Source of the DNA: a virus | DNA: 64,000 bases | Direction: 5' to 3' (one strand) | IMG/VR virus record: IMGVR_UViG_3300030031_000041 | Location: 2,764-66,763 of that record | In this document: positions 2,563 to 60,385 of the stretch, piece after piece | Layout: each line of letters begins with the position of its first letter | Numbering within the stretch: the stretch's first letter is position 1 | Notes under the pieces: generated by a model | Database searches by the model: none | The model's input: only the letters and a program-made list of their open reading frames with translations | What the model was told of the DNA's origin: nothing | Translations under genes and position numbers: made by a program

Positions 2563-3582
2563 ATGGATAAAGAAATTGTTGCAAATTTTGAGAATTTATA
2601 TCGTTCTTACAAAAAGGTTAAGAGCGGTAAAAAATTTAATTCAGGTACTGCAAGATTTTCTAATTTGTCTCTTGAAGGCATTCATCTCTTGAAGGAACAA
2701 TTAGAAAGTCAAACGTATACCATAAATCCGTATAATAAATTTCAAATTCATGAGCCAAAAGAGCGAACGATAGAATCATGTGCATTTAAGGACAAAGTAG
2801 TGCAGAGATGCTTTTCTGATTACATTTTGACACCAAAACTTGAAAATATCCTGATTAAATGGAACACTGCCGGGCAGCAAGGAAAAGGGCAACACATGGC
2901 AATGGACGGGTTAAAAAATCAAATGTTGGATTTCTATAAAAGAAATGGAATGAATAGTTGGATTGTAAAATGTGATATTCACAAATACTTTTATTGCATA
3001 GACCATGAAATCATGAAAGATGTTTTGGATTATTACTTTGATGATGATTTTACAGTCTGGTTAAACCATTTGTTTATTGACAGTACAGGTAATCCCGGGC
3101 TTCCATTAGGAAATCAGGTAAATCAGAAGTACGCATTGTTGCTTTTACATTCACTGGATCAGATGATAACGATTGAATTTGGAAATCCATATTACGGACG
3201 ATACAACGATGATTTTTATGTGATTTGTAAAACGAAAGAAGATGCCAGAGAAATTCTTGAGGCAATCCGAAAGATGGTTGAAAGCCTTGGACTGGAACTA
3301 AACCCTAAATCACAAATTGTACCATTTCGCATGGGCTTGTGTTATCTGGGCTTTCATCATTACGTGACTGATGAAGGAAAATATATCAGAAAATTGCGTG
3401 GTGATAAGAAACGAAAAACACAGAGAAAAATCCGAAGATGGGTACGGGCAGTAAATGACAGGAAGATGTTGATAGAAAAATTTCATGAAAAATACGGAGC
3501 ATGCAAGAATCATATGCTTCATGGAAATTGCACCAAACTATGCCATAGTATGGATTTGGATATTGAAAGGAGAATGAAGTGA
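2563..3582 (+). CDS. DGR reverse transcriptase
   Basis: RT motifs: LPLGNQVNQ (DGR-type [I/L]GxxxSQ-like motif 4), YNDDF catalytic box (YxDD), 339 aa. Confidence 0.85.
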   Translation: MDKEIVANFENLYRSYKKVKSGKKFNSGTARFSNLSLEGIHLLKEQLESQTYTINPYNKFQIHEPKERTIESCAFKDKVVQRCFSDYILTPKLENILIKWNTAGQQGKGQHMAMDGLKNQMLDFYKRNGMNSWIVKCDIHKYFYCIDHEIMKDVLDYYFDDDFTVWLNHLFIDSTGNPGLPLGNQVNQKYALLLLHSLDQMITIEFGNPYYGRYNDDFYVICKTKEDAREILEAIRKMVESLGLELNPKSQIVPFRMGLCYLGFHHYVTDEGKYIRKLRGDKKRKTQRKIRRWVRAVNDRKMLIEKFHEKYGACKNHMLHGNCTKLCHSMDLDIERRMK

Positions 3583-3932: not shown

Positions 3933-4132
3933 AAAGAGTAGACAGTAAGAAAGACTGGGAACAGGTAATAACCATTGAACTTCCGTTGAAGCAACTCAAA
4001 TTAATGCGAGATAGCATGTGCAAAGTAAGCTATGCGGAGTTAGAGAGCCTAAATAAAGGAAAAGACATTCCATATGCCTATTCCGATTTAGAAAAAGCCA
4101 TAGATGAAGTTGAAAATATCTTAGAAGCATAA
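3929..4132 (+). CDS. hypothetical protein
   Basis: ORF track, start overlaps upstream stop. Confidence 0.4.
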   Translation: MKRVDSKKDWEQVITIELPLKQLKLMRDSMCKVSYAELESLNKGKDIPYAYSDLEKAIDEVENILEA

Positions 4133-4163
4133 ATGCAATGTACAGAAAGCGAGGTGATGTCAT

Positions 4164-4925
4164 TTGTTCATGCGAGTAATTTCAACAGGTAGTACCAAAG
4201 GAAATTGTTACGCTTTGCAGTCAAGTGCAGACGAGATTGTTCTTCTTGACTGCGGATGCAACTACAAGAAAATCCTCAGAGGGATTGACTACCAGATAAG
4301 CAATGTTTCTGGCGTACTTCTCTCCCATGAACACGGAGATCACACTGGCAATCACAACAAAACTGTTCGTGAAATCATGAACGCTGGAATCACGGTCTAT
4401 ACCGGAGCAGAAACAATCAAAAATTTAGGCATAACGGACGGAACTATAAAAGCTGTTGCTAAAAAGAAATACTTCAAAATCGACTCGTTCAGCGCAGTTC
4501 CGTTCAGCCTGCCACATACATCTGCAAATAAAGAGCCGTGCCCGAACTTCGGGTATCTAGTGGAACATGAGGAAATGGGAAAGCTTCTTTACCTGACAGA
4601 CTTTGAGCATTGCCGGTACAAATTCAAATCAATGGAACTTAATCATTTGGTTATTGGTTGTAATTACTGCGAGGAGCTGATAGACAGAAACAACTCGAAG
4701 TGGGAGCACCAGATCACTGGGCATTGCTCTTTATCAACTTGCAAGCAATTCGTTAAGCAGAATCGCACAGAATCGCTTCGGACAGTAACACTTGTACATT
4801 TAAGTGGGGATTCATCTGATGCCCGTAAAATACAGCGAGAAATACAAGAAGTTACAGGAAACAATGTTCTGGTTCAGATTGGACGGGCTGGACTGGAAGT
4901 TGACTTGAATTTATGCCCGTTCTGA
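4164..4925 (+). CDS. MBL-fold metallo-hydrolase
   Basis: LSHEHGDHTGN (HxHxDH) motif. Confidence 0.65.
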   Translation: MFMRVISTGSTKGNCYALQSSADEIVLLDCGCNYKKILRGIDYQISNVSGVLLSHEHGDHTGNHNKTVREIMNAGITVYTGAETIKNLGITDGTIKAVAKKKYFKIDSFSAVPFSLPHTSANKEPCPNFGYLVEHEEMGKLLYLTDFEHCRYKFKSMELNHLVIGCNYCEELIDRNNSKWEHQITGHCSLSTCKQFVKQNRTESLRTVTLVHLSGDSSDARKIQREIQEVTGNNVLVQIGRAGLEVDLNLCPF

Positions 4926-4936
4926 AAGGAGATAGG

Positions 4937-5161
4937 ATGATAAATTTAAAAAATTGGAAAGAGGTTACGAAAGGGCTTTACAGATATGTTGTTTCATCAA
5001 ATGTTGCATACGAAATTCACGTCAAATATTGGGACATGGACACAGACATTTTAAGTGCGAATGCAAGTCTGTACATTGTTGGTGATTGGCGTTCGAGAGA
5101 TGGAAAAACACAAGAGAAAGAGAGCGCTTACTTGAATCTGCGCCTGTCATGGCTTGCTTAG
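4937..5161 (+). CDS. hypothetical protein
   Basis: ATG 4937 preceded by AGGAGATAGG; ORF track 4913..5161. Confidence 0.4.
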   Translation: MINLKNWKEVTKGLYRYVVSSNVAYEIHVKYWDMDTDILSANASLYIVGDWRSRDGKTQEKESAYLNLRLSWLA

Positions 5162-5321
5162 CCAAAGCAGAAGAAGATAATATTGAAAATAATGTCGAAT
5201 CTTAGAGGAGATAAGCCATGAACGAATTAACTGATTGTAGCAAATGTAGATTCCGTAATTGCTGTACGTTAGCATGGGATTACGGCTCGCTTTACTGTAA
5301 CGATTATGAGGAGGAAGATAC

Positions 5322-15079: not shown

Positions 15080-15097
15080 ACATGATATGTGCGGCAC
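15080..15097 (+). repeat. inverted repeat arm L (ACATGATATGTGCGGCAC) upstream of recombinase
   Basis: 17/18 match to reverse complement of 16533..16550. Confidence 0.6.
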
Positions 15098-15122
15098 ATT
15101 TCTACACAAAGGAGGAATAGTC

Positions 15123-16487
15123 ATGGAATGTGTTGCGTATTTGCGTGTATCAACAGAAAAACAGGCCGAAGAGGGAAATGGATTAGACAGTCAGAAAAGA
15201 GATATTGAAAATTATTGTAGAAAAAATCAATTGATTATATCTGATTGGTACGAGGATGACGGCTTCACAGGTTCGAATATGAATCGTCCAGCATTGCAAC
15301 GCTTAATTAATGATTGCTCAAAGAAAAAATTAAAATGTGTTGTAGCGTTTAAACTAGATCGATTATCAAGAAGCATGGTCGATGGAATATACTTAATTGA
15401 ACGTGTATTCATACCTAATGGGGTGGATTTTAGATGCGTGCATGATAGTGTAAGCTACGACAGCCCAATGGAGCAAGCATACACTCAGATGATGGCAGTG
15501 TTTGCGCAACTTGACAAAAATACTATGTTGCTTAGAATGCGTGGCGGTATGCTGGAGCGAGTGAAACAGGGATATTGGATGGGAGGTGGCAACACTCCTT
15601 ATTGCTATAGATATAGCAAAGAAGACGGAATCTTAGTTCCCATACCAGAACGCAAAGAAATGGCTTTGCGAGCTATGAATTTGTATATATCCGGTTATTC
15701 TGATGTTCGAATACATAAATTGATAGGATTTAAAAGCGAGTTTGTTACACGACAGGTTCTTACCAGTCCTGTAAATATTGGCATGATTCCGTATAAAGGG
15801 AAACTATATAAGGGAAGACATGAACCAATTTTCGATATTAAAGTATTTGAATTAGCCCAGGAATTAAGAAAAACTCGTAAGCAAAGTAAAAGCTTCTGTG
15901 TTAATCACGAGAATCAGCTCTTGACGGGGCTGTGCTATTGCGGAGTGTGCGGGTGCAAGATGAGATATCAGAAATGGACTCATGGAAAGCATAAAATTTA
16001 TTGCTATTCAAGGGATAACGGCATGTCGTACTTACCAAATTATAATCCGAATTGCAACAATTCGCTTGAGTGGGCAGAAGATATTGAAAAGCAGGTTGAA
16101 GATGAGATTTTAAAGATTTCCCTCAATTTATCATCGCATAAGCCAAAAGAAAGAGAAAGCTGTCTGGACATTTTGAGTAAACAACTCCAAAAAGAAAAAA
16201 CGAAGCTAAAACGTCTATATACTCTTTATGCTGAGGGAAATGATACGGTTTTGGAGATGATAAAAGAAACGGAATCCGGTATAGATGAATTAAAACTAAA
16301 AATACAGAACGAGATGAAGAGCCCGGATAACTCACAGAAGAAAGAATTTGTATACGATAATATAAAAAAGCTTGCCGATGTGTGGGAACACATTGACAAG
16401 CAAAACAAAAACCGTATATTAAAAACTATAATATCAAAAATAATTATAGTCAATGGAAATATTGAAATACAGTTGAAGAAATTTTAG
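15123..16487 (+). CDS. large serine recombinase (integrase-type)
   Basis: VAYLRVSTEKQ..GLDSQ catalytic N-terminus, recombinase and Zn-ribbon/coiled-coil C-terminal region; RBS GGAGG. Confidence 0.8.
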   Translation: MECVAYLRVSTEKQAEEGNGLDSQKRDIENYCRKNQLIISDWYEDDGFTGSNMNRPALQRLINDCSKKKLKCVVAFKLDRLSRSMVDGIYLIERVFIPNGVDFRCVHDSVSYDSPMEQAYTQMMAVFAQLDKNTMLLRMRGGMLERVKQGYWMGGGNTPYCYRYSKEDGILVPIPERKEMALRAMNLYISGYSDVRIHKLIGFKSEFVTRQVLTSPVNIGMIPYKGKLYKGRHEPIFDIKVFELAQELRKTRKQSKSFCVNHENQLLTGLCYCGVCGCKMRYQKWTHGKHKIYCYSRDNGMSYLPNYNPNCNNSLEWAEDIEKQVEDEILKISLNLSSHKPKERESCLDILSKQLQKEKTKLKRLYTLYAEGNDTVLEMIKETESGIDELKLKIQNEMKSPDNSQKKEFVYDNIKKLADVWEHIDKQNKNRILKTIISKIIIVNGNIEIQLKKF

Positions 16488-25930: not shown

Positions 25931-26002
25931 AGGGCTATCGCCAAGTGGTAAGGCACAGCACTTTGACTGCTGTATTCGCGGGTTCGAATCCCACTAGCCC
26001 AG
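25931..26002 (+). tRNA. tRNA-Gln (anticodon TTG)
   Basis: cloverleaf: acceptor AGGGCTA/TAGCCCA, anticodon loop CTTTGAC, T-loop TTCGAAT; A1:A72 mismatch, one C-A in T stem; no encoded CCA. Confidence 0.65.
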
Positions 26003-26224
26003 CTTGCTAGGTTGCGCATGTACCTGGCAAAGGTTTATTTCACATAGACCCTCCGATACCCATCTAGCTCAACGGAGCTGTCTAAAGGGGCTTCAAACGT
26101 CCCGGATGGGATTCCCGTATAGGTGACAGCAAAACCAAAAAAGGGAGCCTTTGTTGCGACTGGTGGCAAAGAATCGCAACAGTAGAAAATATGGCTTTGA
26201 GGTGCTGGTAATATTTTCTACTCA

Positions 26225-26297
26225 GGAAATTTAGTTCAGTGGTTAGAACGCCCGGCTCATAACCGGCAAGTCCTGAGTTCGAATCTCAGAATTTCCA
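26225..26297 (+). tRNA. tRNA with CAT anticodon (Met or Ile2)
   Basis: acceptor GGAAATT/AATTTCC, D stem GTTC/GAAC, loop CTCATAA, T arm CTGAG-TTCGAAT-CTCAG. Confidence 0.65.
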
Positions 26298-26855
26298 TTT
26301 CTTCCATATGCTGCCCATCCGTTTTATGGGCAGAAAAAACTTTCGGATGAGCGTATGTGAATCAGAATGAGCAAAGATATGTAACGGCATAGGCTTGTGC
26401 TTGATCTGATTTCCCGTCCGATGAATGTTTCTTAGTTTCAATAAGCCATCACAGGTGCACATTGATGACAAGGGAGTTTTCAAGAAACATAAAGTCAAAA
26501 GGCATAATAATATCCGAAACAACTCTGTGTGGCTGACACAGCATAAAACAGTCTAGTGGAAAGCATAACACGATAAACATATTGCTAACCCGGGAATCCG
26601 GGTTATGGGAAAGCGGCAACGATTGGTGGTGTTGCGGCGGTCTGTAAAACCGTTCCCTTGTGGTAAACATTATAGGTTCAATTCCTATCTTTCCCATTGT
26701 TTGGAGACTGAAAGTTTGGTGGTAGGAAAAGCACAGGGCAGTGCGCAGGAATGTATAACCGAGTTCCGAATGCGTACTGTTTATCGGTGATATAGTGACT
26801 TCCTCTAGTAGTCAATAAGTGAACGTGCTGAAATGGTTCTTCCAAACATGTACAT
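26298..26855 (+). ncRNA. candidate large structured ncRNA between tRNAs (ROOL/GOLLD-like location)
   Basis: 558 nt, no credible ORF, many local hairpins; sits between tRNAs. Confidence 0.3.
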
Positions 26856-26927
26856 CGCAGGATAGAGAAGCGGAATCTCGCAAGGTTCATATCCTTGAGA
26901 ACGGCGGTTCAAATCCGTCTCCTGCAA
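26856..26927 (+). tRNA. tRNA with CAT anticodon, C1:A72 mismatch (initiator-like)
   Basis: acceptor CGCAGGA/TCCTGCA, D stem GAGA/TCTC, anticodon stem CAAGG/CCTTG loop TTCATAT, T arm GGCGG-TTCAAAT-CCGTC. Confidence 0.6.
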
Positions 26928-27613
26928 TTTCAAACATGATTAACTCAGTGCAGATAGATTTTCAGTCTAGCTGAGATACAGGGTTATGTAAGATGGAGTA
27001 GTTCGGGATACTGGACTATCAACCATCTTTTTAGCAGAAGTGATTCTGTTAGAGGAGGAAGAAACTTCCAACACACCTTGTAGTGTATCATCATAAAGAG
27101 ACCAAAAGCAGAATCCTTGTGGTCGGCGTACAATAGACGCTTGCTGTGCAAGAATAATCCGTTGATGTGAGTGGTGTGAGAGACCACAGACTAAACGGAA
27201 ATCTCGTTAAGCTGATTTGCCTTGAACCTGAGAAATTAGGGTATAACACAAGAGATTCGTTAAAGTAGCGGTATGGCAATTCATAAAAAAATTTCATGCT
27301 ATAAAAAACATTTTCTGAAAGAACCGTGAAATTTGTGGGTGACACTCCCATGTGTGCTTTGACCGCGGTAAGAAGCTCAGGGTCGCTCCCGAAAGCTCAG
27401 ACTTATCGTCACAGTGGCTGAACATGGTTGCAAGTATGGTGAATAAGGAGAAATCCTAATCGTGGTTGAATATGGTGCATTGCTGTAATGGTATCAGAGT
27501 AGGTTGCTAACCTATCCAACAGAAATGTTGTACACGTTCGAATCGTGTATGCACCGCTCCATCTACCATGAGTAGATAGGAAATCCGACTTTAGCATAGC
27601 TATTGTTGGTTTT
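26928..27613 (+). ncRNA. candidate large structured ncRNA between tRNAs
   Basis: 686 nt noncoding, structured, flanked by tRNAs. Confidence 0.3.
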
Positions 27614-27687
27614 CGGAATGTATCTCAGTTGGGAGAGCGGAGGACGCATAGTCCTTGACGTCGCAAGTTCGAATCTTGCCTTTCCGA
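27614..27687 (+). tRNA. tRNA-like gene with CAT in anticodon loop (atypical G33; possibly degenerate)
   Basis: acceptor CGGAATG/CTTTCCG (one mismatch), T arm GCAAG-TTCGAAT-CTTGC, loop CGCATAG. Confidence 0.4.
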
Positions 27688-48698: not shown

Positions 48699-50273
48699 AT
48701 GGCCGATAATACCATAGATACCCTCAATATACAAATAGACAGTAGCACAACTCAGGCGGTACGGTCTATTAATAACCTTGTAAAAAAATTAGATACATTA
48801 AACACTGCCCTTGGAAATCTTGACATAAGCCGGTTAAATAATTTTTCCAATTCTTTAAAAAGTTTAGGTAGCGTGAATTTTAAAGCAAATGGATTGAATG
48901 CGGCTATAAACGCTATCAATCGTCTTGGAAAATCCGATTTCAGTCAGTTTGATACAGGGAAATTAGGCAAAATTCTTACTGAGATGCAGAAACTTGATGC
49001 TATTCCAGATGTTTCTCCGAGCGTTAGCCGGTTTACAACCGCTATAGCTAAACTTGCCGGTACAGGACAGTATATCGGCAATGTATCAAAGGAACTTCCG
49101 AATCTTGCGACAGGTTTAAATAATGCGGCTACTAAATTAGGCTCTATGAGTGAAGTATCAGCATCCACCAATGCCTTTATTACTTCTCTTGGAAAATTAG
49201 CTGGTGCAGGAGATAAAACTGGAAAGACTGCAAGTCAATTATCAACTCTCGCGCAAGAGGTTTTGAAGTTTTTTGACGTAATGAAAAGTGCACCAGATAT
49301 CAGTTCGAGCACAATAAGAATGACAGAAGCTCTTGCAGTATTAGCATCGTCTGGAAGCAAAGTAGGGCGTGCCACAAGTATCGTTTCGAATTCATTTAAC
49401 ACGCTTTCTTCGTTAGGTTCAAAAGCAAGTACTGTAATCAATGGGCTGACAAATGCTTTTCAAAAATTTGCTTCAAAAGCTATTTCTTTAGGCGGAAAAG
49501 CCGTATCTGCAATCGCAGGTATTGGAAATGCATCTTCTGAAGCTGGTGAAAAAATAAGAAGATTGTCAAATCCTCTGAGTTCGGTAACGAATAAGTTGAG
49601 TGCTCTTTACGCCAAAGGTTTTCTCGCAAAAAGAGCATTAGATGTTCTGGCATCGCCAGTAGAATCCGCAATGAACTATGTAGAGACTCTGAACTATTTC
49701 AACTCTGCGTTCAATCAGGTGGCAGAAGGAATCAACACTGACGAATGGAAAAAAAGTGGCATAAAATCCGCTGAAGCATATGCAAATTCATTCCAGGAAA
49801 GGGCAAAACAGCTTTCACAGAAACTGACAGGATTCGAAATTTCAGATACTGGTGAACTGGCTAGAACCAATACCGCTAGTCTTGGACTTGACCCAGAAAA
49901 AACAATGCAGTATCAGGCAACATTTGCACAGATGGCATCATCTATGGGCGATACATCAGAGACTGCATTAAAATTGTCTAATGCACTCACTATGATTGGT
50001 GCAGATCTTGCTTCTGTAAGAAATATGGACTTCGAGGATGTATGGCAGGACATGGCATCTGGCTTGACTGGTATGAGCCGCGCTATGGATAAGTACGGCA
50101 TTAATATCCGTAATGCCAACATGCAACAGGAACTGTATAATCTTGGGATTAATACCAGCATATCGAAGTTGTCTCAGGCAGATAAAACGATTTTGAGAAC
50201 GATTATCTTGCTAAACAACTCTAAGTATGCATGGGCTGATTTGTCAGAAACGATAAATAGGTCAGTAGCGTGA
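48699..50273 (+). CDS. tail tape measure protein, 5-prime part (exon 1 candidate)
   Basis: 524 aa Ala/Ser/Leu-rich helical; ends DLSETIN.. just before intervening sequence. Confidence 0.65.
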   Translation: MADNTIDTLNIQIDSSTTQAVRSINNLVKKLDTLNTALGNLDISRLNNFSNSLKSLGSVNFKANGLNAAINAINRLGKSDFSQFDTGKLGKILTEMQKLDAIPDVSPSVSRFTTAIAKLAGTGQYIGNVSKELPNLATGLNNAATKLGSMSEVSASTNAFITSLGKLAGAGDKTGKTASQLSTLAQEVLKFFDVMKSAPDISSSTIRMTEALAVLASSGSKVGRATSIVSNSFNTLSSLGSKASTVINGLTNAFQKFASKAISLGGKAVSAIAGIGNASSEAGEKIRRLSNPLSSVTNKLSALYAKGFLAKRALDVLASPVESAMNYVETLNYFNSAFNQVAEGINTDEWKKSGIKSAEAYANSFQERAKQLSQKLTGFEISDTGELARTNTASLGLDPEKTMQYQATFAQMASSMGDTSETALKLSNALTMIGADLASVRNMDFEDVWQDMASGLTGMSRAMDKYGINIRNANMQQELYNLGINTSISKLSQADKTILRTIILLNNSKYAWADLSETINRSVA

Positions 50274-50570
50274 TAAATGCGTAGCTACTGGCAAGTCGCT
50301 CATATCGAAACCGTCAAGTAGGATATGAGTTATTAGTGATGAAATAAGCTGGAAAGCCGTTTGCAACGGTAATCAGAGAGTGAAGGCTATGATTAAAAGC
50401 ATAGTCAACCGCAACGCGTAGGAAGTGAAACTGTAGTTGAGATACTACAGAATATAATCTTCCCAAGAGGCATCACTATCGGACGGTACAGGTGCAGAGC
50501 CTGTGGTAAAAAGGTACGCTGGACATGCATTGTAATAATGCAGAAGTGAGGATAAAAAGCCTTACGATAA
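50257..50570 (+). other. 314-nt intervening sequence (group I intron candidate) flanked by 7-bp repeat ACGATAA
   Basis: removal joins 48699.. frame to 50564.. frame exactly; highly structured, multiple stops. Confidence 0.5.
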
Positions 50571-53500
50571 CAAATCGAAATCAACCGGCAAATCAGATTC
50601 GTATGCTTCAATCTAACTTTGCATCCCTTGGTAGAACAATAGGTTCCTTATTCATTCCTATACTGCAAACAGTACTTCCATATATCAATGCAATAGTAAT
50701 CGCAATACAAAGAATGTTCGCTTATATTGCAAAACTTCTTGGAATCAAACTGTCAAACTTCGTATCATCTACTGGTGGTATTTCTGTAGATACCGGAGAT
50801 ATTGCAGATAATATGGATAATGCCAGTGGCGCAATTGATACAGCAAATTCTAATGCTAAAAAACTTGAAAAAACATTATCTGTTATGTCCTTCGATGAAC
50901 TGAATCAGCTCAACGATAACTCTGATTCTAGCAGCTCAACTACTCCGTCTTCTGGTTCTGGAACAGGCGGTTTGGGGCATATCGGAGCACTTGACGCAGC
51001 TTTGGACGATGCTTTATCTGCTTATCAAAAAGCATGGGACGAAGCATTCAAGAAAATGTCCAACAGAGCAAATGAGATGGCAGATGCTATCGTGAATGCC
51101 TTTAAGAGAAAAGACTGGAAAGGTCTTGGAAAAATCATGGCTGACGGCATTAACTGGGGAATGCAAAAGCTTTATGATTTCATTAACTGGAATAACGTAG
51201 GCCCTTACATCACTAAATTCACCAGTGCGTTCACCCAGACTTTCAACAGCCTTGTTGATAATATCAACTGGGATTTGATGGGACGTACCGTTGGAGCTGG
51301 TATGAATACTATTGTAAATACTGCAAACCAACTTCTGGAAGGAATCGACTGGAAGAACCTTGGTGCTAAATTTGCCAATGGTATCACTGGCCTTGTTCGT
51401 GAAGTGAATTGGGAAAACTTCGGCAATCTGCTTGGAAATTCCTTTATGCGTGGATGGGATATTTTCTCAGGCTTCGTAGAAAATCTCCAGTACGGAGAAA
51501 TTGGAACAGCTGTCGCAGAAGGCTTGAACGGAATCTTTGAAAAGATTAATTTCGGTGAAATTGCTCATACACTTGCAACTGGATTGAATGGTGCTTTTGA
51601 TACATTGGCTTCATTTACAGCAAGCTTTAATTGGGAAAATCTTGTTGATAACATTACAAATGGAATCACCACATTCATGCAAGAATTCAACTGGAAAGAG
51701 AATGGACAGAAGTTAGAAGAATTTATTAACAAATTACTCACGTCACTTATCGAGATTGCAAGGGGTGTCGATTGGGAAGCGTTTGGACACAATGTAGGCG
51801 TATTCCTCAGTGAAATTGACTGGGGAAAACATCTTGCACAGTTACTTACGGTTATCGGAGACGTTCTTGGTGGAATCTGGGAAGGACTTGGAACAACATC
51901 TGCCGGCACATTTGTTCAAGCTATGGCTGTATTTGCAGTTGGTAATAAGCTCATGCCATTAGTTGATACAATTACTAAGTTTTTTACAGGTGATACTGTA
52001 TTTGGAAATCTTTCTAAAGCTGTACGAGGTATGCTGAGTCCCGCAATCACAGAAGCAGTCTCAACAACTATTCCGGCTCTTGGGACATCGTTAGGCTCAC
52101 TTGTTGCAACTGGTGGTGGAATTGCTCTTGCAGTAGATGGTGCAGTATTACTTACCAAGAAATTAGCAGGACTTTTTGAGACCATGCAAGGTGGTAATGG
52201 AATGACTACACAGTATGGTGGTTATCTCCATGATTACGCAACACAGCTGACTGATGTAGCAAATCTTACAAACGATCAATCGGAAGCGTTGTGGCAGCTT
52301 ATTGAGAAGGATGAAGAACTTGGAAAAACTCACGATGAAATGTACTCTGATATGGTTGAAAAATTGAAAGAGTATGGCGTTTCATCCGATCAGGCTAGAA
52401 CAGCTCTTGAGCAGTATGGCGCACAGGCCGGTGTATCGGCTGAATTTGTTGAGGGTATGACTAATCAAATCTCCGCACTTGGAGATGGCGTGTCAGAAGC
52501 AGCTGGTAAATTCGATACATCAAAAATCAGTATTTCGGATTTGAAAGACGAGCTATACTTATTGAGTCTGAAATCTGACGATTTTGGTGGTTCATACAAA
52601 ACAGCCATGGACGAACTTGATAATGCTAATAATGGTGGAACTATCACAAATACCAAAGATGCATTAGATACAGTCTACACTTCATTGAAGAATGCAGGAG
52701 TTCCACTCGATGAACTGAACAACAAACTTGCAAAAGACTTCCCGAACGCTACGTTAGCCACAAAATCAGCAGTAGACAAGAATATTGTTGGAGCACAGCA
52801 GACTATATCAACATCAGTTGGACAGGCATCAAGAGACACTCAAACAGCCACAAATCAAATGGCAAAAAATGCCACAGATGATTTCTCGGAAATCCAGAAA
52901 CAGGCTGATACTTACATGAAAGGCATGGAAACTACAACTACTAGCTCATGGGGAAATTCTTCCAGAGAAGCGACATTAAAGGCAAGGGAGATGAAAAATG
53001 CCGTAAGTACAGAACTTGGAAATATGGACAAATCTGTAACAAGCCATTTCCAAAGTCAGTACAACATTGCTTATAAGAAATGGGAGAATATCGGAAGAGA
53101 TATCTCTTCTTATGTTTCTGGAAGTATGTCAAAGAGTATGGATAGCTCTTTAAATAGCTTTATGAGAACTATTCGCAGCGCATTCAGTGATATGTACAGC
53201 ATTGGCCATAATGCGGCTCAATCATTAAGAAATGGAATGAAATCCGTGAGAATGCCTACGCTTTCGTATTATATTTCTCAGTGGAAAACACATAGCCTTG
53301 GGAACGGCGGTACCAGTTCAACCCCTGTCTATAGTCCGAACTGGTATGCAAAAGGTGGTTTGTTCAAAAATGCATCTGTCATTGGTGTAGGCGAAGCAGG
53401 ACAGGAAGCTGTTCTCCCTTTGGAAAATCGTAAAGCCATGAAATCCATTGCCGACAGCATCATGTCCGGCTATGACGGCAACATGGGACTTACGAAAGAT

Positions 53501-53683
53501 GAGATCATGGAAGCTGTCGAGCGTGGCGTAGTTACTGCTTTGATGAACAATGGTGGTTTTGGCGGTTCTTCACCAGAGTACATCATGAACAGCATCAAAG
53601 TGAACGAGCGTGAACTGGCGCGAATTGTCACAAAGGCTCAGAACAACACAGATTACCGCATGAATCCGTCCCCGGCATATTGA
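50571..53683 (+). CDS. tail tape measure protein, 3-prime part (exon 2 candidate)
   Basis: continues TMP core motif PANQIRMLQ..LGRTIGSLFIPIL; 1000+ aa. Confidence 0.65.
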
Positions 53684-53739: not shown

Positions 53740-53802
53740 AGAGCACACTAAAGATGAAACGAGGGAAAAACCTCACGATTCTTTGGTGTGCTCTTTTTTT
53801 TG
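53740..53802 (+). terminator. intrinsic terminator after tape measure
   Basis: AGAGCACAC/GTGTGCTCT stem then TTTTTTTT. Confidence 0.55.
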
Positions 53803-53829
53803 TTTGGTAAAGCAAAGAGAAAGGTATTT

Positions 53830-54039
53830 ATGAAACCGTATGGATTAGTTGATAAGAAAATTTTATTTAACAACAATTTATCTCTTGAAGCCAAGGGAAT
53901 TTATGGACTTATAATGAGCTTTGATAGTGAAAGAATTAATGTAGAGGAAATTTATAAATTATCATTAGAAGATAAAGAGGTTGTTGACAGAGCCATAGAT
54001 GAATTGCAATCACACGGCTATGTCTTTATTGAAAAATAA
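53830..54039 (+). CDS. small winged-helix-like protein
   Basis: ATG 53830; LSLEAKGIYGLIMSF. Confidence 0.4.
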   Translation: MKPYGLVDKKILFNNNLSLEAKGIYGLIMSFDSERINVEEIYKLSLEDKEVVDRAIDELQSHGYVFIEK

Positions 54040-54172
54040 TTTTGGTAAAACCAGTAGGCTAGGGTAGCTCCCGAAAAGTGTAATTCCATGATACACCTGC
54101 CTACTGTTTTTATAAATCATGGATCTGTGGCTACAAGGCAGTCACGCATTAACGACATGGAGGTTATCTATT

Positions 54173-55333
54173 ATGAGCGAACAAATCAAAGAATTATCCC
54201 AAAATGAATTAGAAAGAAAAGTAGATTACATATTTTCACATAGATTTAATCACACTCTGCATGCTTATATCGATATTGCAGGTGATTTAACAGCAGGTGT
54301 TTTATTATCTCAAATTATGTACTGGTTTGATAAAGATTCAAAAAATGAGTGCGTCAGAACAAAAATCAAAAAGAAAGGTTATTTTTGGATTGCTAGGCGT
54401 AGAGATGAATGGGCAAACGAAATAAGAGTTGCACCTAAGCAGTATGATTCTGCGATGAAAAAATTAAAAGCTAGAAATTTGGTAGTTGTTGAAAAATTTA
54501 AAATTAATGGTGCTCCAACAACGCATATCAGACCTAATGATGAAGTAATAAATGTTGCTATTAAAGAATGGAAAGAACAAATTGCTCTTGAAATTATCAA
54601 AGACAACGAAGCGGAACAAAGTGACGTGAATTCCTCAAATCAGAATTTACCAGAAGAGGAAAATCACGAAAAAGTAGTGCCAAATGATGATAAACACTGG
54701 TTTTCCCCAAAAGAGGAATTTCCAAATTCCCAAAACAAGGAAAACCATGGAATTTCCCAAAATGGGAAAATGGAACTTCCCCAAAATGGAAACTCTTTAA
54801 TTAATAAGAACTATAATAAAGATTTAGATGAGGTTTATAAAAAGAGGGTTAAAGATTCTGATACTACTAAAGTAGTACCAGTAGATTCTCCATGTCCGGG
54901 TAAGCCGGAAACAAGGAGCATCCAGTCTCCACTCGGAATGGGAATAAGCGAAATCCTTTTGAGGAAAGGAATAAACCAATATTGGAATGATGTAGGATGC
55001 GAAGAGTATGAAGAATTGAAAACAAATGTCACTAATGTCATATTATATTTTTTGGAAAAATACAAAATTAAACTAGGCAAAAGCCATGTTCATTTAAAAG
55101 AAGAATATATAAAAACCGTAGTAGAAGGAATTGTTACAGTACCAGACGAGATGATTGAGTTGATAGATGCTTATGGCTTTGAGTATATTTATAAATCATG
55201 CATTGACATGTATTTTGATACAAAATTCAGAGAAGATACCAATTATCGTATTTTTCATTTCATAAAAGGTGATATTAGGAAAAATATTGCAATGAAACTT
55301 TCAGACCAAATAGAGTTGATAAGCGATAAATAA
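54173..55333 (+). CDS. replication-initiator-like protein (inserted module)
   Basis: RBS GGAGG before ATG 54173; N-terminal wHTH-like region, Asn/Lys-rich middle. Confidence 0.45.
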   Translation: MSEQIKELSQNELERKVDYIFSHRFNHTLHAYIDIAGDLTAGVLLSQIMYWFDKDSKNECVRTKIKKKGYFWIARRRDEWANEIRVAPKQYDSAMKKLKARNLVVVEKFKINGAPTTHIRPNDEVINVAIKEWKEQIALEIIKDNEAEQSDVNSSNQNLPEEENHEKVVPNDDKHWFSPKEEFPNSQNKENHGISQNGKMELPQNGNSLINKNYNKDLDEVYKKRVKDSDTTKVVPVDSPCPGKPETRSIQSPLGMGISEILLRKGINQYWNDVGCEEYEELKTNVTNVILYFLEKYKIKLGKSHVHLKEEYIKTVVEGIVTVPDEMIELIDAYGFEYIYKSCIDMYFDTKFREDTNYRIFHFIKGDIRKNIAMKLSDQIELISDK

Positions 55334-56416: not shown

Positions 56417-59400
56417 ATGAGAAAATTATCTAACAGATGGAAAGAAAAAGTTAAGAACGGAATGGACGTGCAGTACCTCAAGTATGCAGATATCACACTT
56501 ACAGATGGAACTGTACTCAATCTGACCAGTGCCAATCTGTGGCAAAACGGAATGGAATTCGAAGATTCCGTGTCCGGGGATAGTAGCTTTGACATCGGTT
56601 CTGCAATCATTAATGTATTGAATCTTAGCATTAATAATTTTGACGGTGAGTACTCCGATTACGATTTTGAGGGAGCAGAAGTCATATGTTATGTTGGATT
56701 ACAGATTGAAGATGAGGACACAAGTGAACTGTTAGATTCAGACGGAGAACAAATACTGGATTCAACCGGTGATACAATCATAGTTCATAAAAATGCGGTT
56801 ATTGAAAAAACACGTATTTGCACAGTGACAGTTATTGAACAGCCGGAAGACGAAACGGTGACCATAGACCTTACGTGTGAAGATAATATGCGGAAGTTTG
56901 ACCGGAACTATTCAGACAGCAAATTGAAGTATCCGGCAACCAGAGGGCAGATTGTACGAGATGCCTGCGAGGTATGTGGAGTTACTTTGCAAACAACATC
57001 ATTTGACAGAGATGATTATATCGTGCAGAATCGTCCAAATGACGAAGCTTTAACATTTCGCCAGGTTCTACAGTGGGTTGCACAGATTGGCTGTCAGTGG
57101 ATGAGATGCGATGAATATGGCAGATTGTGCATCAATTGGTACGGTTCTGTCAATGAAGAAGAACTTACAGTTGATGAACTTGGAGTATTAAAAACACAGG
57201 ACGGAAGCAACGTTAATCTTAACTTCTCGAACTCAGATGGTGCGTTGTCGGCTGACAATGGTACGCTTCTTGAAAATGATGGGATTCTGAGGCTTTTTGC
57301 AACTGACGAAAAAGGTAACATTTCTGAAATAGAAACCACCTATGGTTTTACTCCGCATCATACAGATGTAGTAATCACAGGCGTGAAAGTAACTGAATAC
57401 AGCGAATCCTCTTCTGATAATCCGCAAACTTACATGGTTGGTACAGAGGGATATGTACTTGGAATTTCTGGTAATAAATTAATTCGTGTTGGCGATGGCC
57501 AGACGATTGCTTCAATGATTGCCGAGAAATGCGTTGGCATGAGATTTAGACCATTTGAATCCGAGTGCCCTACAGATGTGGCTCTGGAAGCCGGAGATTC
57601 ACTGATTATTGTGGATAGAAATGGAAAAATATACACATCGCTACTTACCACAACTACATTGAAACCGGGATCCGGTCAGAAGATAGCTTGTAATGCCAAA
57701 AGCGCTGCTAAAAATAGCAGCACCCAATATTCCCAGGCGACGCAGGCATTTGTTACTGCAAGAAATATGGTTAAGCAGGAAAAAACCGAGAGAGAAAAAG
57801 CTCTTGAAGAATTTGGAAAAAGAATTGATTCGGCCACTGGTGTATATACCACCGAAGAAATACAGGAAGATGGAAGCCGGATTTTTTATTTGCATGATAA
57901 GCCTACACTCGCTGAATCCAAAGCAATTTGGAAGATGACCTCCGAGGCGTGGGGCGTATCCACAGATGGTGGTCAAACGTGGAATGGCGGCATGACTGTT
58001 GATGGCGATACCATTGTTCGAATCTTGAATGCAGTTGGAGTAAATGCAACGTGGATTAATACAGGAGCAATCACAGTAAAGGATGCAAACGAAAATATTC
58101 TTTTCCAAGTCGATATGGACACCAAAACGGTTGTTATCGACCCAGATGTTTTGATTATCGGAAATATGACATTGTCCGAGAAATTGGAAAACATGGATGA
58201 GAATATTGCATCTGCCAAGAATATGACATTCCAGCTGTCAAACGATATGCAGACGATTACATCTGACGCAGACGGCAACATTCCGGTATTTCCAACAGTG
58301 GCAACTACAGCGAAAGTTATGTACGGCTCGTCAGATATCACAAATGATTGTAGCTATACCATTACAAAATCAGACAGTGTAACCGGCTCTTGGGATGTAG
58401 ATACGCATACCTATACAGTCACAGGTTTGAGTGCCGACAATGGATGGGTGGACATTAAGGCAACGTACCTGATTAATCTTTCTGTAACGAAGAGATTTAC
58501 ATTAGCGAAACAAAAGCAGGGACTTGAAGGTGACAAAGGACTTCCGGGAAAATCACCGACCATTCGTTATGCGTCTATGCCGGATGGCACCGATATGTCG
58601 GATAATCCGAAGTATGTAAAATTACTTGACAGTGCCGGAAATATAATAAGCGATTCAACTGGTGACATTATTTATACAAGTGGTGAAGCATTTTATGTCG
58701 GATTCCTAAAAGAAAGCGCAGAAGTAGACAGTACGAATCCAAGTGACTATGAATGGTCACGGTACAAAGGAACTGACGGGCTGACTCAATACACTCATCT
58801 CGCTTATGCGAATAGTGCTGATGGAAAAACAGATTTCTCAGTCGATAATCCAAACCGTGAATATATCGGAATGTACGTGGACTTCGAAGAACAGGATTCC
58901 ACTAACCCGGAAAAGTACGCATGGACATTGGTTAAGGGCGCAAACGGAGCACAGGGCGTGCCGGGGAAACCTGGAACCGATGGTAAAACACCTTATTTCC
59001 ATATTGCCTATGCGAACAGTGCGGATGGAAAGACTGAATTCTCAGTAGATAACAGTGTCGATAAGCTGTATATCGGTCAGTACACAGATTACTTACCAGA
59101 TGATAGCACTGACCCAGCTAAGTATAGTTGGACAAAGATTAAAGGTAACGACGGTACTCCGGGAAGAACGTATTATCTGAGAGCCAACGCAGGAGTTCTG
59201 ATGATGGGACAGGATAAGAAAATAACTCCTAATCCATTTAATGTTCATGCGTATTACAGAGATGGACAGGGTGACGAAGCAACTTTTAAAACCTGGTGGG
59301 TAGTAGAATACAGCAAAGATGCCGGAAAAACATGGACAAAAATGGCCTTTAATTCACAGACCAGTGGAATAACTATTAATCCAGATAGCTATTCTCTTGG

Positions 59401-60385
59401 TGCTGACGGAATGATACGTGCAACAATTTATACGGATTCCGGAAGAACTAAAATCGCCGATCAGCAGACATGGCAGGTTGCTGTTGACGTTGGCATGCTT
59501 ACGCAGGAGCAGATTGTTGAGATATTGTCTAATGACGGAGAATTTAAAGGTCTCTACTATCTGAATGGACATCTGTACATCAGTTTAGACGCATTGATGG
59601 GAAATGCCGCAATTCTAGGTGGAGCCAAAAACGGCAACGGATACCTAAAGATTAAAGATAAAAAAGGCACCGTGAAGGAACTGATAGATTACTCAGGCTA
59701 CACTGCATTTACAAGCTATGAAGAAAATTCTACGCGCATGAAATATACAGGAATTTGTTTTTCAGATACTGGAATAAATCCTGTTAGTGCCGAGAAATAC
59801 TTTAGCAGCACTGCGGATATTGAATACGTTGAAACGGCGTGGGGAATCGACTGGACTGCCGAAGAGCTTAATATTAGTGCAACAGAAGTATCGGCTGATA
59901 CCGGTACATTTGGAGATTTAACTGTTACTAATTCTGCATCTTTTGCAAAATCGCCAAAGATAGAAGACATGGAGTATACGACATCATCAAATACTATTTG
60001 TTGGGATGGACGTACAGGATACAAACAGCTGATGCTGAAATCTTCATCCTCGAAACGCTATAAAGATATTGGAAACGATATTTCAGAGCAAGAAATTGAA
60101 AACTGGTACAATATTGAACCAACGTGGGCGAAATATAAAGAGGGATATCTAGTTGAAGGGGACGAGAATGAAGGCAGATATATCCCGATGTTTATTGCTG
60201 AGAATGTAGAAGCATTCTTTCCAGAAGCTACTCGGTATCAAAACGGACTTGTTGAGGACTGGAACGAACGTATCATGATACCGGCAATGTTTGCGATGAT
60301 AAAAAGCCAGAAAAAACAGCTTGACCGACAGGAGAAACTAATTAATCAGCTCTATAAAAAGCTCAATATAGAAAAGGAGAATTAA
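56417..60385 (+). CDS. tail fiber/host-specificity protein with collagen-like GxPGKxG and repeated AYANSADGKT motifs
   Basis: 1322 aa; three repeats of Y(T/F)H(L/I)AYANSADGKT(D/E)FS. Confidence 0.7.
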   Translation: MRKLSNRWKEKVKNGMDVQYLKYADITLTDGTVLNLTSANLWQNGMEFEDSVSGDSSFDIGSAIINVLNLSINNFDGEYSDYDFEGAEVICYVGLQIEDEDTSELLDSDGEQILDSTGDTIIVHKNAVIEKTRICTVTVIEQPEDETVTIDLTCEDNMRKFDRNYSDSKLKYPATRGQIVRDACEVCGVTLQTTSFDRDDYIVQNRPNDEALTFRQVLQWVAQIGCQWMRCDEYGRLCINWYGSVNEEELTVDELGVLKTQDGSNVNLNFSNSDGALSADNGTLLENDGILRLFATDEKGNISEIETTYGFTPHHTDVVITGVKVTEYSESSSDNPQTYMVGTEGYVLGISGNKLIRVGDGQTIASMIAEKCVGMRFRPFESECPTDVALEAGDSLIIVDRNGKIYTSLLTTTTLKPGSGQKIACNAKSAAKNSSTQYSQATQAFVTARNMVKQEKTEREKALEEFGKRIDSATGVYTTEEIQEDGSRIFYLHDKPTLAESKAIWKMTSEAWGVSTDGGQTWNGGMTVDGDTIVRILNAVGVNATWINTGAITVKDANENILFQVDMDTKTVVIDPDVLIIGNMTLSEKLENMDENIASAKNMTFQLSNDMQTITSDADGNIPVFPTVATTAKVMYGSSDITNDCSYTITKSDSVTGSWDVDTHTYTVTGLSADNGWVDIKATYLINLSVTKRFTLAKQKQGLEGDKGLPGKSPTIRYASMPDGTDMSDNPKYVKLLDSAGNIISDSTGDIIYTSGEAFYVGFLKESAEVDSTNPSDYEWSRYKGTDGLTQYTHLAYANSADGKTDFSVDNPNREYIGMYVDFEEQDSTNPEKYAWTLVKGANGAQGVPGKPGTDGKTPYFHIAYANSADGKTEFSVDNSVDKLYIGQYTDYLPDDSTDPAKYSWTKIKGNDGTPGRTYYLRANAGVLMMGQDKKITPNPFNVHAYYRDGQGDEATFKTWWVVEYSKDAGKTWTKMAFNSQTSGITINPDSYSLGADGMIRATIYTDSGRTKIADQQTWQVAVDVGMLTQEQIVEILSNDGEFKGLYYLNGHLYISLDALMGNAAILGGAKNGNGYLKIKDKKGTVKELIDYSGYTAFTSYEENSTRMKYTGICFSDTGINPVSAEKYFSSTADIEYVETAWGIDWTAEELNISATEVSADTGTFGDLTVTNSASFAKSPKIEDMEYTTSSNTICWDGRTGYKQLMLKSSSSKRYKDIGNDISEQEIENWYNIEPTWAKYKEGYLVEGDENEGRYIPMFIAENVEAFFPEATRYQNGLVEDWNERIMIPAMFAMIKSQKKQLDRQEKLINQLYKKLNIEKEN

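Follow-up and report, generated by a model that had tools for sequence, protein, structure and literature searches.

The introns of gene orf142 of Staphylococcus phage Twort are, judged by their sequences, the closest characterised relatives, among those directly tested, of the element described here, a 323-nt insertion in the tape measure gene of a virus known from metagenomic sequencing (IMG/VR record IMGVR_UViG_3300030031_000041, positions 2,764-66,763; these 64,000 nt are called the window, and coordinates refer to the window). One of them, orf142 I2, is the crystallised Twort ribozyme, of subgroup IA2. The Twort introns and the window intron are situated in phage tail genes and share the helix order P3-P9, an extra arm after P7, the succession UGAAC-P9-GAAG-P9.1 and a G(A)UAACAnnnUUG tail leading to the intron-terminal guanosine (omega-G). 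In contrast, Twort has a canonical P7 (GACUA/UAGUC), and the Rfam group I model RF00028 scores about 97-101 bits on the two Twort introns that are also matched by R1, a covariance model built from 40 sequences of the family to which the window intron belongs. The window intron has a GCGUA/UACGC P7 and a reduced P4-P6 region, its P1 loop carries an additional hairpin, and RF00028 does not match it.

For prophages of the Bacillus cereus group, group I introns of the subgroups IA1 and IA2 have been reported in tape measure and tail-tube genes; some copies lacked a complete endonuclease gene, the introns were polymorphic for presence or absence, and P1 was adapted to the respective site (Tourasse & Kolsto 2008, PMC2504315). 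The window intron resembles them in several respects. In both cases the introns are small, some of them lack a complete endonuclease gene, and they lie in conserved stretches of tape measure genes (PMC2504315). A change of site via P1 is likewise seen between the tape measure copy of the window and copies in major-tail-protein genes, and presence or absence varies among related phages. The hosts and phages are different, the window stemming from an uncultured gut or metagenome source, and the two groups are likened here by their published description.

On the basis of sequence comparison, the segment 50255-50577 is, with high confidence, a group I intron predicted to splice itself, probably of the phage IA type; it is related to the introns of Twort orf142 and inserted within the Ile519 codon of the tape measure gene. 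The following sections establish the boundaries of exons and intron, the fold and how it is conserved, and the homology to introns with proven self-splicing. The deviations from described introns represent variation within the known group I family and not a new kind of intron; the element is of an already well-known kind.

One tape measure gene in two open reading frames

The two open reading frames (ORFs) on either side of the insertion, ORF1 and ORF2 (Table 1), had been regarded in an initial annotation as halves of a single tape measure gene, and this is borne out by the homologues. In phrog_28918, residues 325-520 of ORF1 correspond to profile positions 1-195 and residues 22-672 of ORF2 to positions 198-914, and in the tape measure family phrog_1535, ORF1 covers profile positions 230-359 and ORF2 positions 356-1140. 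The PHROG tape measure profiles are colinear from ORF1 into ORF2, and the similarity of exon 1 to intron-less tape measure proteins ends at 50254, both profiles matching up to residue ~520. A Pfam search of both halves yielded nothing useful, the PHROGs being informative instead. Furthermore, a 'minor tail protein' of Dulem virus 39, uninterrupted over 1078 aa, is colinear with ORF1 plus ORF2.

A protein search returned 10 intron-less homologues that span the junction, and all of them (10/10) align without a gap to ...SETINQPANQ..., the product expected after removal of 323 nt. The best intron-less homologue, a protein with 94% identity (P0001), is encoded by DNA (L128) whose sequence across the site is ACGATC|AATCAACCGG. 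Two blastn alignments link the window to L128; on L128 they meet exactly at the insertion site, and in the window 323 nt lie between them, which identifies L128 as the empty site and shows that the window carries a precise insertion of 323 nt. Splicing of 50255-50577 would yield ...DLSETI|NQPANQIRML... with the junction peptide YAWADLSETINQPANQIR; the predicted ligated mRNA is ...GAAACGAU|AAAUCAACC... and its product a tape measure protein of 1553 aa (...DLSETINQPANQIRML...).

It could be argued that ORF1 and ORF2 are translated separately into two polypeptides and that the intervening RNA is a structured spacer, which is never spliced. Both ORFs are open, ORF2 has a start codon of its own, and gene callers list many proteins of the ORF1 type. 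In the protein database these proteins, 524-528 aa in length, form clusters of 39, 81 and 54 members; the intron-containing allele is common and recurs on many contigs. However, conserved parts of the intron, namely P9, P9.1 and the 3' tail, code for residues 1-18 of ORF2, the similarity to tape measure proteins starts at residue 19-22, and no strong ribosome-binding site is found upstream of 50525. In addition, the intron-less homologues are single continuous proteins and the supposed spacer holds a full group I core with covariation support. Two separate products are thus considered very unlikely.

The exact junction differs from the one that had been proposed from a direct repeat. The 7-mer ACGATAA is present at 50250-50256 and at 50564-50570, in each case as ACG ATA A in the frame of its own ORF, and deletion of the 314 nt between the copies does fuse the two frames. 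The true excision nevertheless comprises 323 nt, since removal of 314 nt adds Thr-Asn-Arg, found in no homologue, and the exon would then not end with U, nor the intron with G. Dulem virus 39 reads DTI---NQPANQ at the junction, compared to SETITNRNQPANQ in the 314-nt product. A second candidate, 50259-50566 (308 nt, U...G, giving TINITNR), is excluded by the same homologues without TNR. The repeat as such does not mark the junction: in 50200-50650 there are 8 pairs of repeated 7-mers compared to 8.7 +/- 3.9 in shuffles, and the second ACGATAA copy falls within the conserved 3' tail of the intron, GAUAACAnnnYG. Here, the sequence observation as first described is partly confirmed, while the core interpretation is supported.

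Two further explanations rely on the same repeat. The first is a small non-autonomous transposon with ACGATAA as a 7-bp target-site duplication, to which a 7-nt direct repeat flanking 307 nt would fit. The repeat is, however, at chance level, terminal inverted repeats were not seen by eye, and the second copy lies in the conserved intron tail, whatever the host gene. The empty site L128 defines an insertion of 323 nt with different ends and without duplication of ACGATAA, and at all loci where the flanking genes were checked (L001-L004, L062, L112, L131) the element points in the same direction as the gene it interrupts. A transposon can therefore be regarded as extremely improbable. The second is a ribosome bypass between the ACGATAA copies, as in T4 gene 60, for which matching codons (ACG ATA) are present at both ends in the right frames. 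Such a bypass would lead to SETITNRNQPANQ with the extra TNR, which no homologue contains, and the gap to be crossed is a conserved ribozyme fold of 314 nt, whereas the known bypass of T4 gene 60 spans 50 nt. Hence, there is next to no chance that the two ORFs are joined by the ribosome.

Boundaries and fold of the intron

The ends of the intron are ambiguous over four bases, since intron and exon 2 both begin with AAAU. Of the possible registers, 50255-50577 alone provides a U at the exon end together with a G at the intron end, and the boundaries were set due to this. The last base of the 5' exon, U50254, forms a U·G wobble with G50295 of the internal guide in P1, and G50577 is the omega-G, placed by the helix P9.0. 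Here, the dinucleotide behind P7 pairs with the one preceding the terminal G, in the window GA with UC and in the family in the classes AA/UU, AG/CU, GA/UC, AC/GU and GU/AC. Of 111 family members, 86 show this arrangement with a G directly behind it, compared to 59.6 +/- 2.7 in shuffles, and the covariation confirms the 3' end at G50577 independently. Also P1 changes in step with the exon, as the window and the family member L131 have CGAU/GUCG, and L062 and L112 have UGGU/GCCG at the same aligned position.

Between these ends a complete group I core is found, from P1 to P9.1 and with the P3/P7 pseudoknot (Table 1). A small, structured group I intron without an ORF had been postulated initially, to be recognised by a P1-P9 fold in which the 5' splice site has a U and the last base is a G. 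This fold was obtained, and its covariation, its putative guanosine site in P7, the U50254·G50295 wobble, the omega-G at G50577 and the R1 link to Twort agree with the postulate. The five hairpins already listed are all present and correspond to P1a, P2, P6, P7.1a and P8. Stop codons, noted before in all frames, number 7-11 per forward frame of the intervening sequence, which folds better than shuffled sequences (z = -3.97).

The pairing statistics are based on an alignment of 40 family sequences made with MAFFT (A1). Standard pairs are present in 82.9% of the cells, whereas shuffles give 61.4 +/- 0.7% and controls with a slid partner strand 36-45%, and 53 of the 62 pairs change on both sides. 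P3, P4, P6, P7, P7.1 and the outer part of P8 are paired to 75-100%, with many compensatory changes, and covariation supports P3, P4, P6, P7, P7.1, P8 and P9.0. The values of P9 and P9.1 are lower because of a register shift in the MAFFT alignment; when inspected by eye, P9.1 was seen to covary in all sequences looked at. A1 has 42 invariant columns distributed over the core, and by definition the window agrees with each of them.

Within P7, the pair G50416-C50519 next to the bulged C50415 is invariant in 40 of 40 sequences, and by its position would be the guanosine-binding pair. Three pairs of P7 covary, including the one before the bulge (AAC...U versus AGA...C), which is A-U in 26 sequences and G-C in 14. 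P7.1 and P7.1a constitute one extended extra arm between P7 and the 3' strand of P3 (50421-50463). An arm of this kind is a peripheral element typical of subgroup IA, for which the extra helices P7.1/P7.2 are expected at this place; the alignment strongly supports one extended arm. Within the P1 loop, the 14-nt loop of P1a, GUGAUAAAUGCGUA (50270-50283), is identical in L062, although the stems beneath are different, which suggests a tertiary contact or a protein site.

Table 1. Coordinates of the ORFs, exons, intron and helices of the tape measure locus in the window; percentages and pair counts refer to alignment A1
Feature	Position	Strand	Description
ORF1	48699-50273	+	524 aa
ORF2	50525-53683	+	1052 aa; own ATG at 50525
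Tape measure exon 1	48699..50254	+	ends with AU, codon positions 1 and 2 of Ile519
Group I intron, ORF-less	50255..50577	+	323 nt; start AAAUAGG, end AACAAAUCG; R1 171 bits over 50334-50577
Tape measure exon 2	50578..53683	+	first base A completes the Ile codon, then NQPANQIRML
P1	50251-50254 with 50295-50298	+	exon CGAU with internal guide GUCG; P1a within the P1 loop
P1a hairpin	50262-50269 with 50284-50291	+	UCAGUAGC with GCUACUGG; loop GUGAUAAAUGCGUA
P2 hairpin	50299-50306 with 50322-50329	+	CUCAUAUC with GAUAUGAG
P3	50336-50341 with 50471-50476	+	GUGAUG/CAUCAC; pseudoknot with P7; 6/6 pairs change on both sides
P4	50349-50352 with 50373-50376	+	CUGG/UCAG; 98% paired; 3/4 pairs compensatory
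P5	50356-50361 with 50365-50370	+	GCCGUU/AACGGU; inside P4; J4/5 and J5/4 A-rich
P6 hairpin	50385-50391 with 50400-50406	+	GGCUAUG/CAUAGUC; 96.7% paired; 7/7 pairs compensatory
P7	50414, 50416-50420 with 50515-50520	+	A + GCGUA with UACGCU; C50415 bulged; 100% paired in 40
P7.1	50421-50425 with 50459-50463	+	GGAAG/CUUCC; 100% paired; 4/5 pairs compensatory
P7.1a	50431-50437 with 50444-50450	+	CUGUAGU/ACUACAG
P8 outer	50477-50480 with 50505-50508	+	UAUC/GGUA; 94% paired
P8 inner	50488-50492 with 50500-50504	+	ACAGG/CCUGU
J8/7	50509-50514	+	AAAAAGG, after P8
P9.0	50522-50523 with 50575-50576	+	closes over P9 and P9.1
P9	50526-50531 with 50537-50542	+	
P9.1	50546-50551 with 50560-50565	+	loop AUAAAAAG

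The intron family and its detection

A comparison of the insert with phage genomes by blastn revealed short conserved blocks in unrelated phages of Clostridium, Enterocloster, Bacillus and Staphylococcus, each block being situated in a gap between two coding sequences on the same strand. With a pattern derived from the conserved 3' end, GATAAAAAGC-N4-8-GATAACA, IMG/VR was scanned, and at least 120 stretches match, nearly all of them with one architecture. On several IMG/VR contigs (L012, L018, L051, L006, L078) two or three family introns lie within a few kb, and at L003 and L004 a family intron adjoins canonical introns that are detected by RF00028.

The link of this family to canonical group I introns is provided by two of its members and by R1. 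The member L097 reaches 54.2 bits on RF00028 (gathering score 50) and has a variant P7, ACGCAUA/UAUGC, as in the lineage of the window; the alignment labels R, the P7.1 insert, the 3' strand of P3, P8, J8/7-S and P9 in agreement with the assignments in the window. L098 displays a canonical GAUAUAGUC followed by the P9.1 and tail module of the family and scores 45.3 bits on RF00028. In turn, R1 matches two of the three Twort orf142 introns (L129), for which self-splicing has been proven experimentally, over their full length, with 43.7 bits at 1106-1321 and 31.2 bits at 1384-1630. A further R1 match in the window, at 57643-57816 with 15.4 bits, is due to chance, lying inside an uninterrupted tail-protein ORF of 1322 aa and being devoid of the R and S elements and the P7 core.

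In a first reading of the fold, P3 had been assigned to GCGUA/UACGC and P4/P5 to the GGAAG...CUUCC arm, so that the topology looked non-canonical. This was dropped because of the canonical GAUAUAGUC at the same position in L098, the RF00028 mapping of L097 and the covariation of GUGAUG/CAUCAC.

Group II introns, which are built of six domains, one of them domain V, do not come into consideration, as the intron starts with AAAUAG instead of GUGYG, measures 323 nt compared to at least ~600 nt, and gives no Rfam group II match.

Several observations weigh against a functional group I intron. In the whole window, the Rfam models gave neither a group I nor a group II match at gathering score, and for 50150-50700 there was none of either kind even at E <= 10. 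The search with the Rfam group I model, which had been suggested as a check, thus failed, and taken alone it would have led to the rejection of a correct interpretation. In the middle pairs of P7, the window has GCGUA/UACGC where GACUA/UAGUC would be canonical; in A1 the lineage has G-C, C-G, A-U or G-C, U-A and A-U, whereas the canonical order is G-C, A-U, C-G, U-A and A-U. This variant P7 and the reduced P4-P6 probably explain the poor sensitivity of RF00028. Furthermore, P1 comprises only 4 bp, and a P10 was sought with nothing convincing being found: GGCAA (50290-50294) does not match AAAUC of the 3' exon as a complement, and in L131 a P10 of 2 bp could form. P10 is often weak or dispensable in group I introns. 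Finally, splicing in vivo is something we infer from the family, and it is the boundaries, the fold and the homology that are established for this copy.

These points would also be compatible with a decayed group I intron, which no longer splices, within a tape measure pseudogene of a defective prophage. The failure of RF00028 on the window copy, the short P1 without P10 and the missing homing endonuclease gene would fit to this. On the contrary, the 42 invariant columns of A1 are kept (by definition), the family model gives 171 bits, and both exons are open and conserved. In a nearly identical copy, L047, a C-to-U exchange in P6 preserves the pairing as a G·U pair, and the allele recurs on many contigs. 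A decayed, non-splicing intron is therefore hardly to be expected, and the reading as a self-splicing intron is maintained.

In the peripheral helices P1a, P2 and P8, the closest family members are L062 4931-5260 (-), L112 8930-9255 (+) and L119 (-). These introns do not interrupt a tape measure gene, but the gene of the major tail protein just after its start (MALSGVSTLGVTFG|YGTE...). For L119, the U expected at the exon end fits the reading frame poorly. An intron at the window's insertion site is present in L131 (JGI 3300045988, contig Ga0495776_031548), with an identical insertion point ACGAU|AAAU, the GUCG guide and the 3' module (R1 122.9 bits). Here, a family intron of ~1.2 kb (4088-5303) is found at the same codon of a tape measure gene that is only 58% identical. 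It contains a GIY-YIG fragment of 51 aa and a NUMOD1 ORF of 206 aa, which look like a decaying homing endonuclease. L131 therefore differs from the ORF-less window copy in its length, its endonuclease remnants and a different P4-P6 subtype. At this site a series of presence and absence is seen: the allele with 94% protein identity is empty, the window has an intron lacking an ORF, and in the divergent tape measure gene of L131 the intron retains GIY-YIG remnants.

It is a tentative and rather doubtful proposal that the window intron represents a distinct and large sub-lineage of phage group I introns, which would be characterised by a GCRUA/UAYGC P7, the P9.1 loop AUAAAAAG and the GAUAACA tail and would be largely invisible to RF00028.

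Proposed splicing and spread, and consequences for phage tail genes

Mechanistically, the following steps are proposed from established group I chemistry. The transcript would fold into the P1-P9.1 core, and a free guanosine bound at G50416-C50519 of P7 would attack the bond after U50254, which is held in the P1 wobble with G50295. Subsequently, omega-G50577, positioned by P9.0, would take the place of the guanosine in the P7 site, and the 3'-OH of U50254 would attack after G50577, so that the exons are joined and the tape measure protein of 1553 aa can be made. On unspliced RNA, translation would end at the TGA codon 50271-50273. As a further and rather doubtful possibility, inefficient or conditional splicing might serve to balance an N-terminal fragment of 524 aa against the complete tape measure protein.

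Since the window intron does not contain an endonuclease gene, this copy has probably spread by recombination or by means of an endonuclease acting in trans. The cooperation of a free-standing endonuclease with an ORF-less intron has been documented (PMC3984707). The remnants in L131 suggest that an endonuclease encoded within the intron formerly acted at this homing site. They also suggest that the window copy either derives from such an intron by reduction or arrived separately as an ORF-less one.

Other elements were observed elsewhere in the window. A cluster of five tRNA genes at 25931-27687 (+) holds a ROOL RNA (RF03087, 384 bits, 26920-27477). The interval from the tape measure gene to the gene of the 1322-aa tail protein (56417-60385) contains an apparent inserted block (53788-55333), which comprises an ORF of 83 aa with HTH_36, an int-alpA RNA (RF02996, 54 bits, 54052-54122) and an ORF of 404 aa without a Pfam match. 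Further, an ORF for a reverse transcriptase (RVT_1, E = 5.5e-13), which may be of the diversity-generating or the retron type, is found at 2563-3582, and a large serine recombinase (Resolvase and Zn_ribbon_recom) at 15087-16487.

For the annotation of the phage, the finding means that two 'hypothetical' ORFs are to be joined as one tape measure protein of 1553 aa. The length of the tape measure protein sets the length of the tail. Conceptually nothing new is involved, and the presence or absence of the intron at this site is a natural example of intron homing and endonuclease loss.

Beyond this locus, the standard Rfam group I model misses a common lineage of phage introns, and many metagenomic phage genes are called as fragments, as seen by the dozens of ORF1-type fragments of 524-528 aa in the protein database. 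If a distinct lineage invisible to RF00028 were indeed present, split genes of the tail, of replication and of other phage functions would be systematically mis-annotated in metagenomes.

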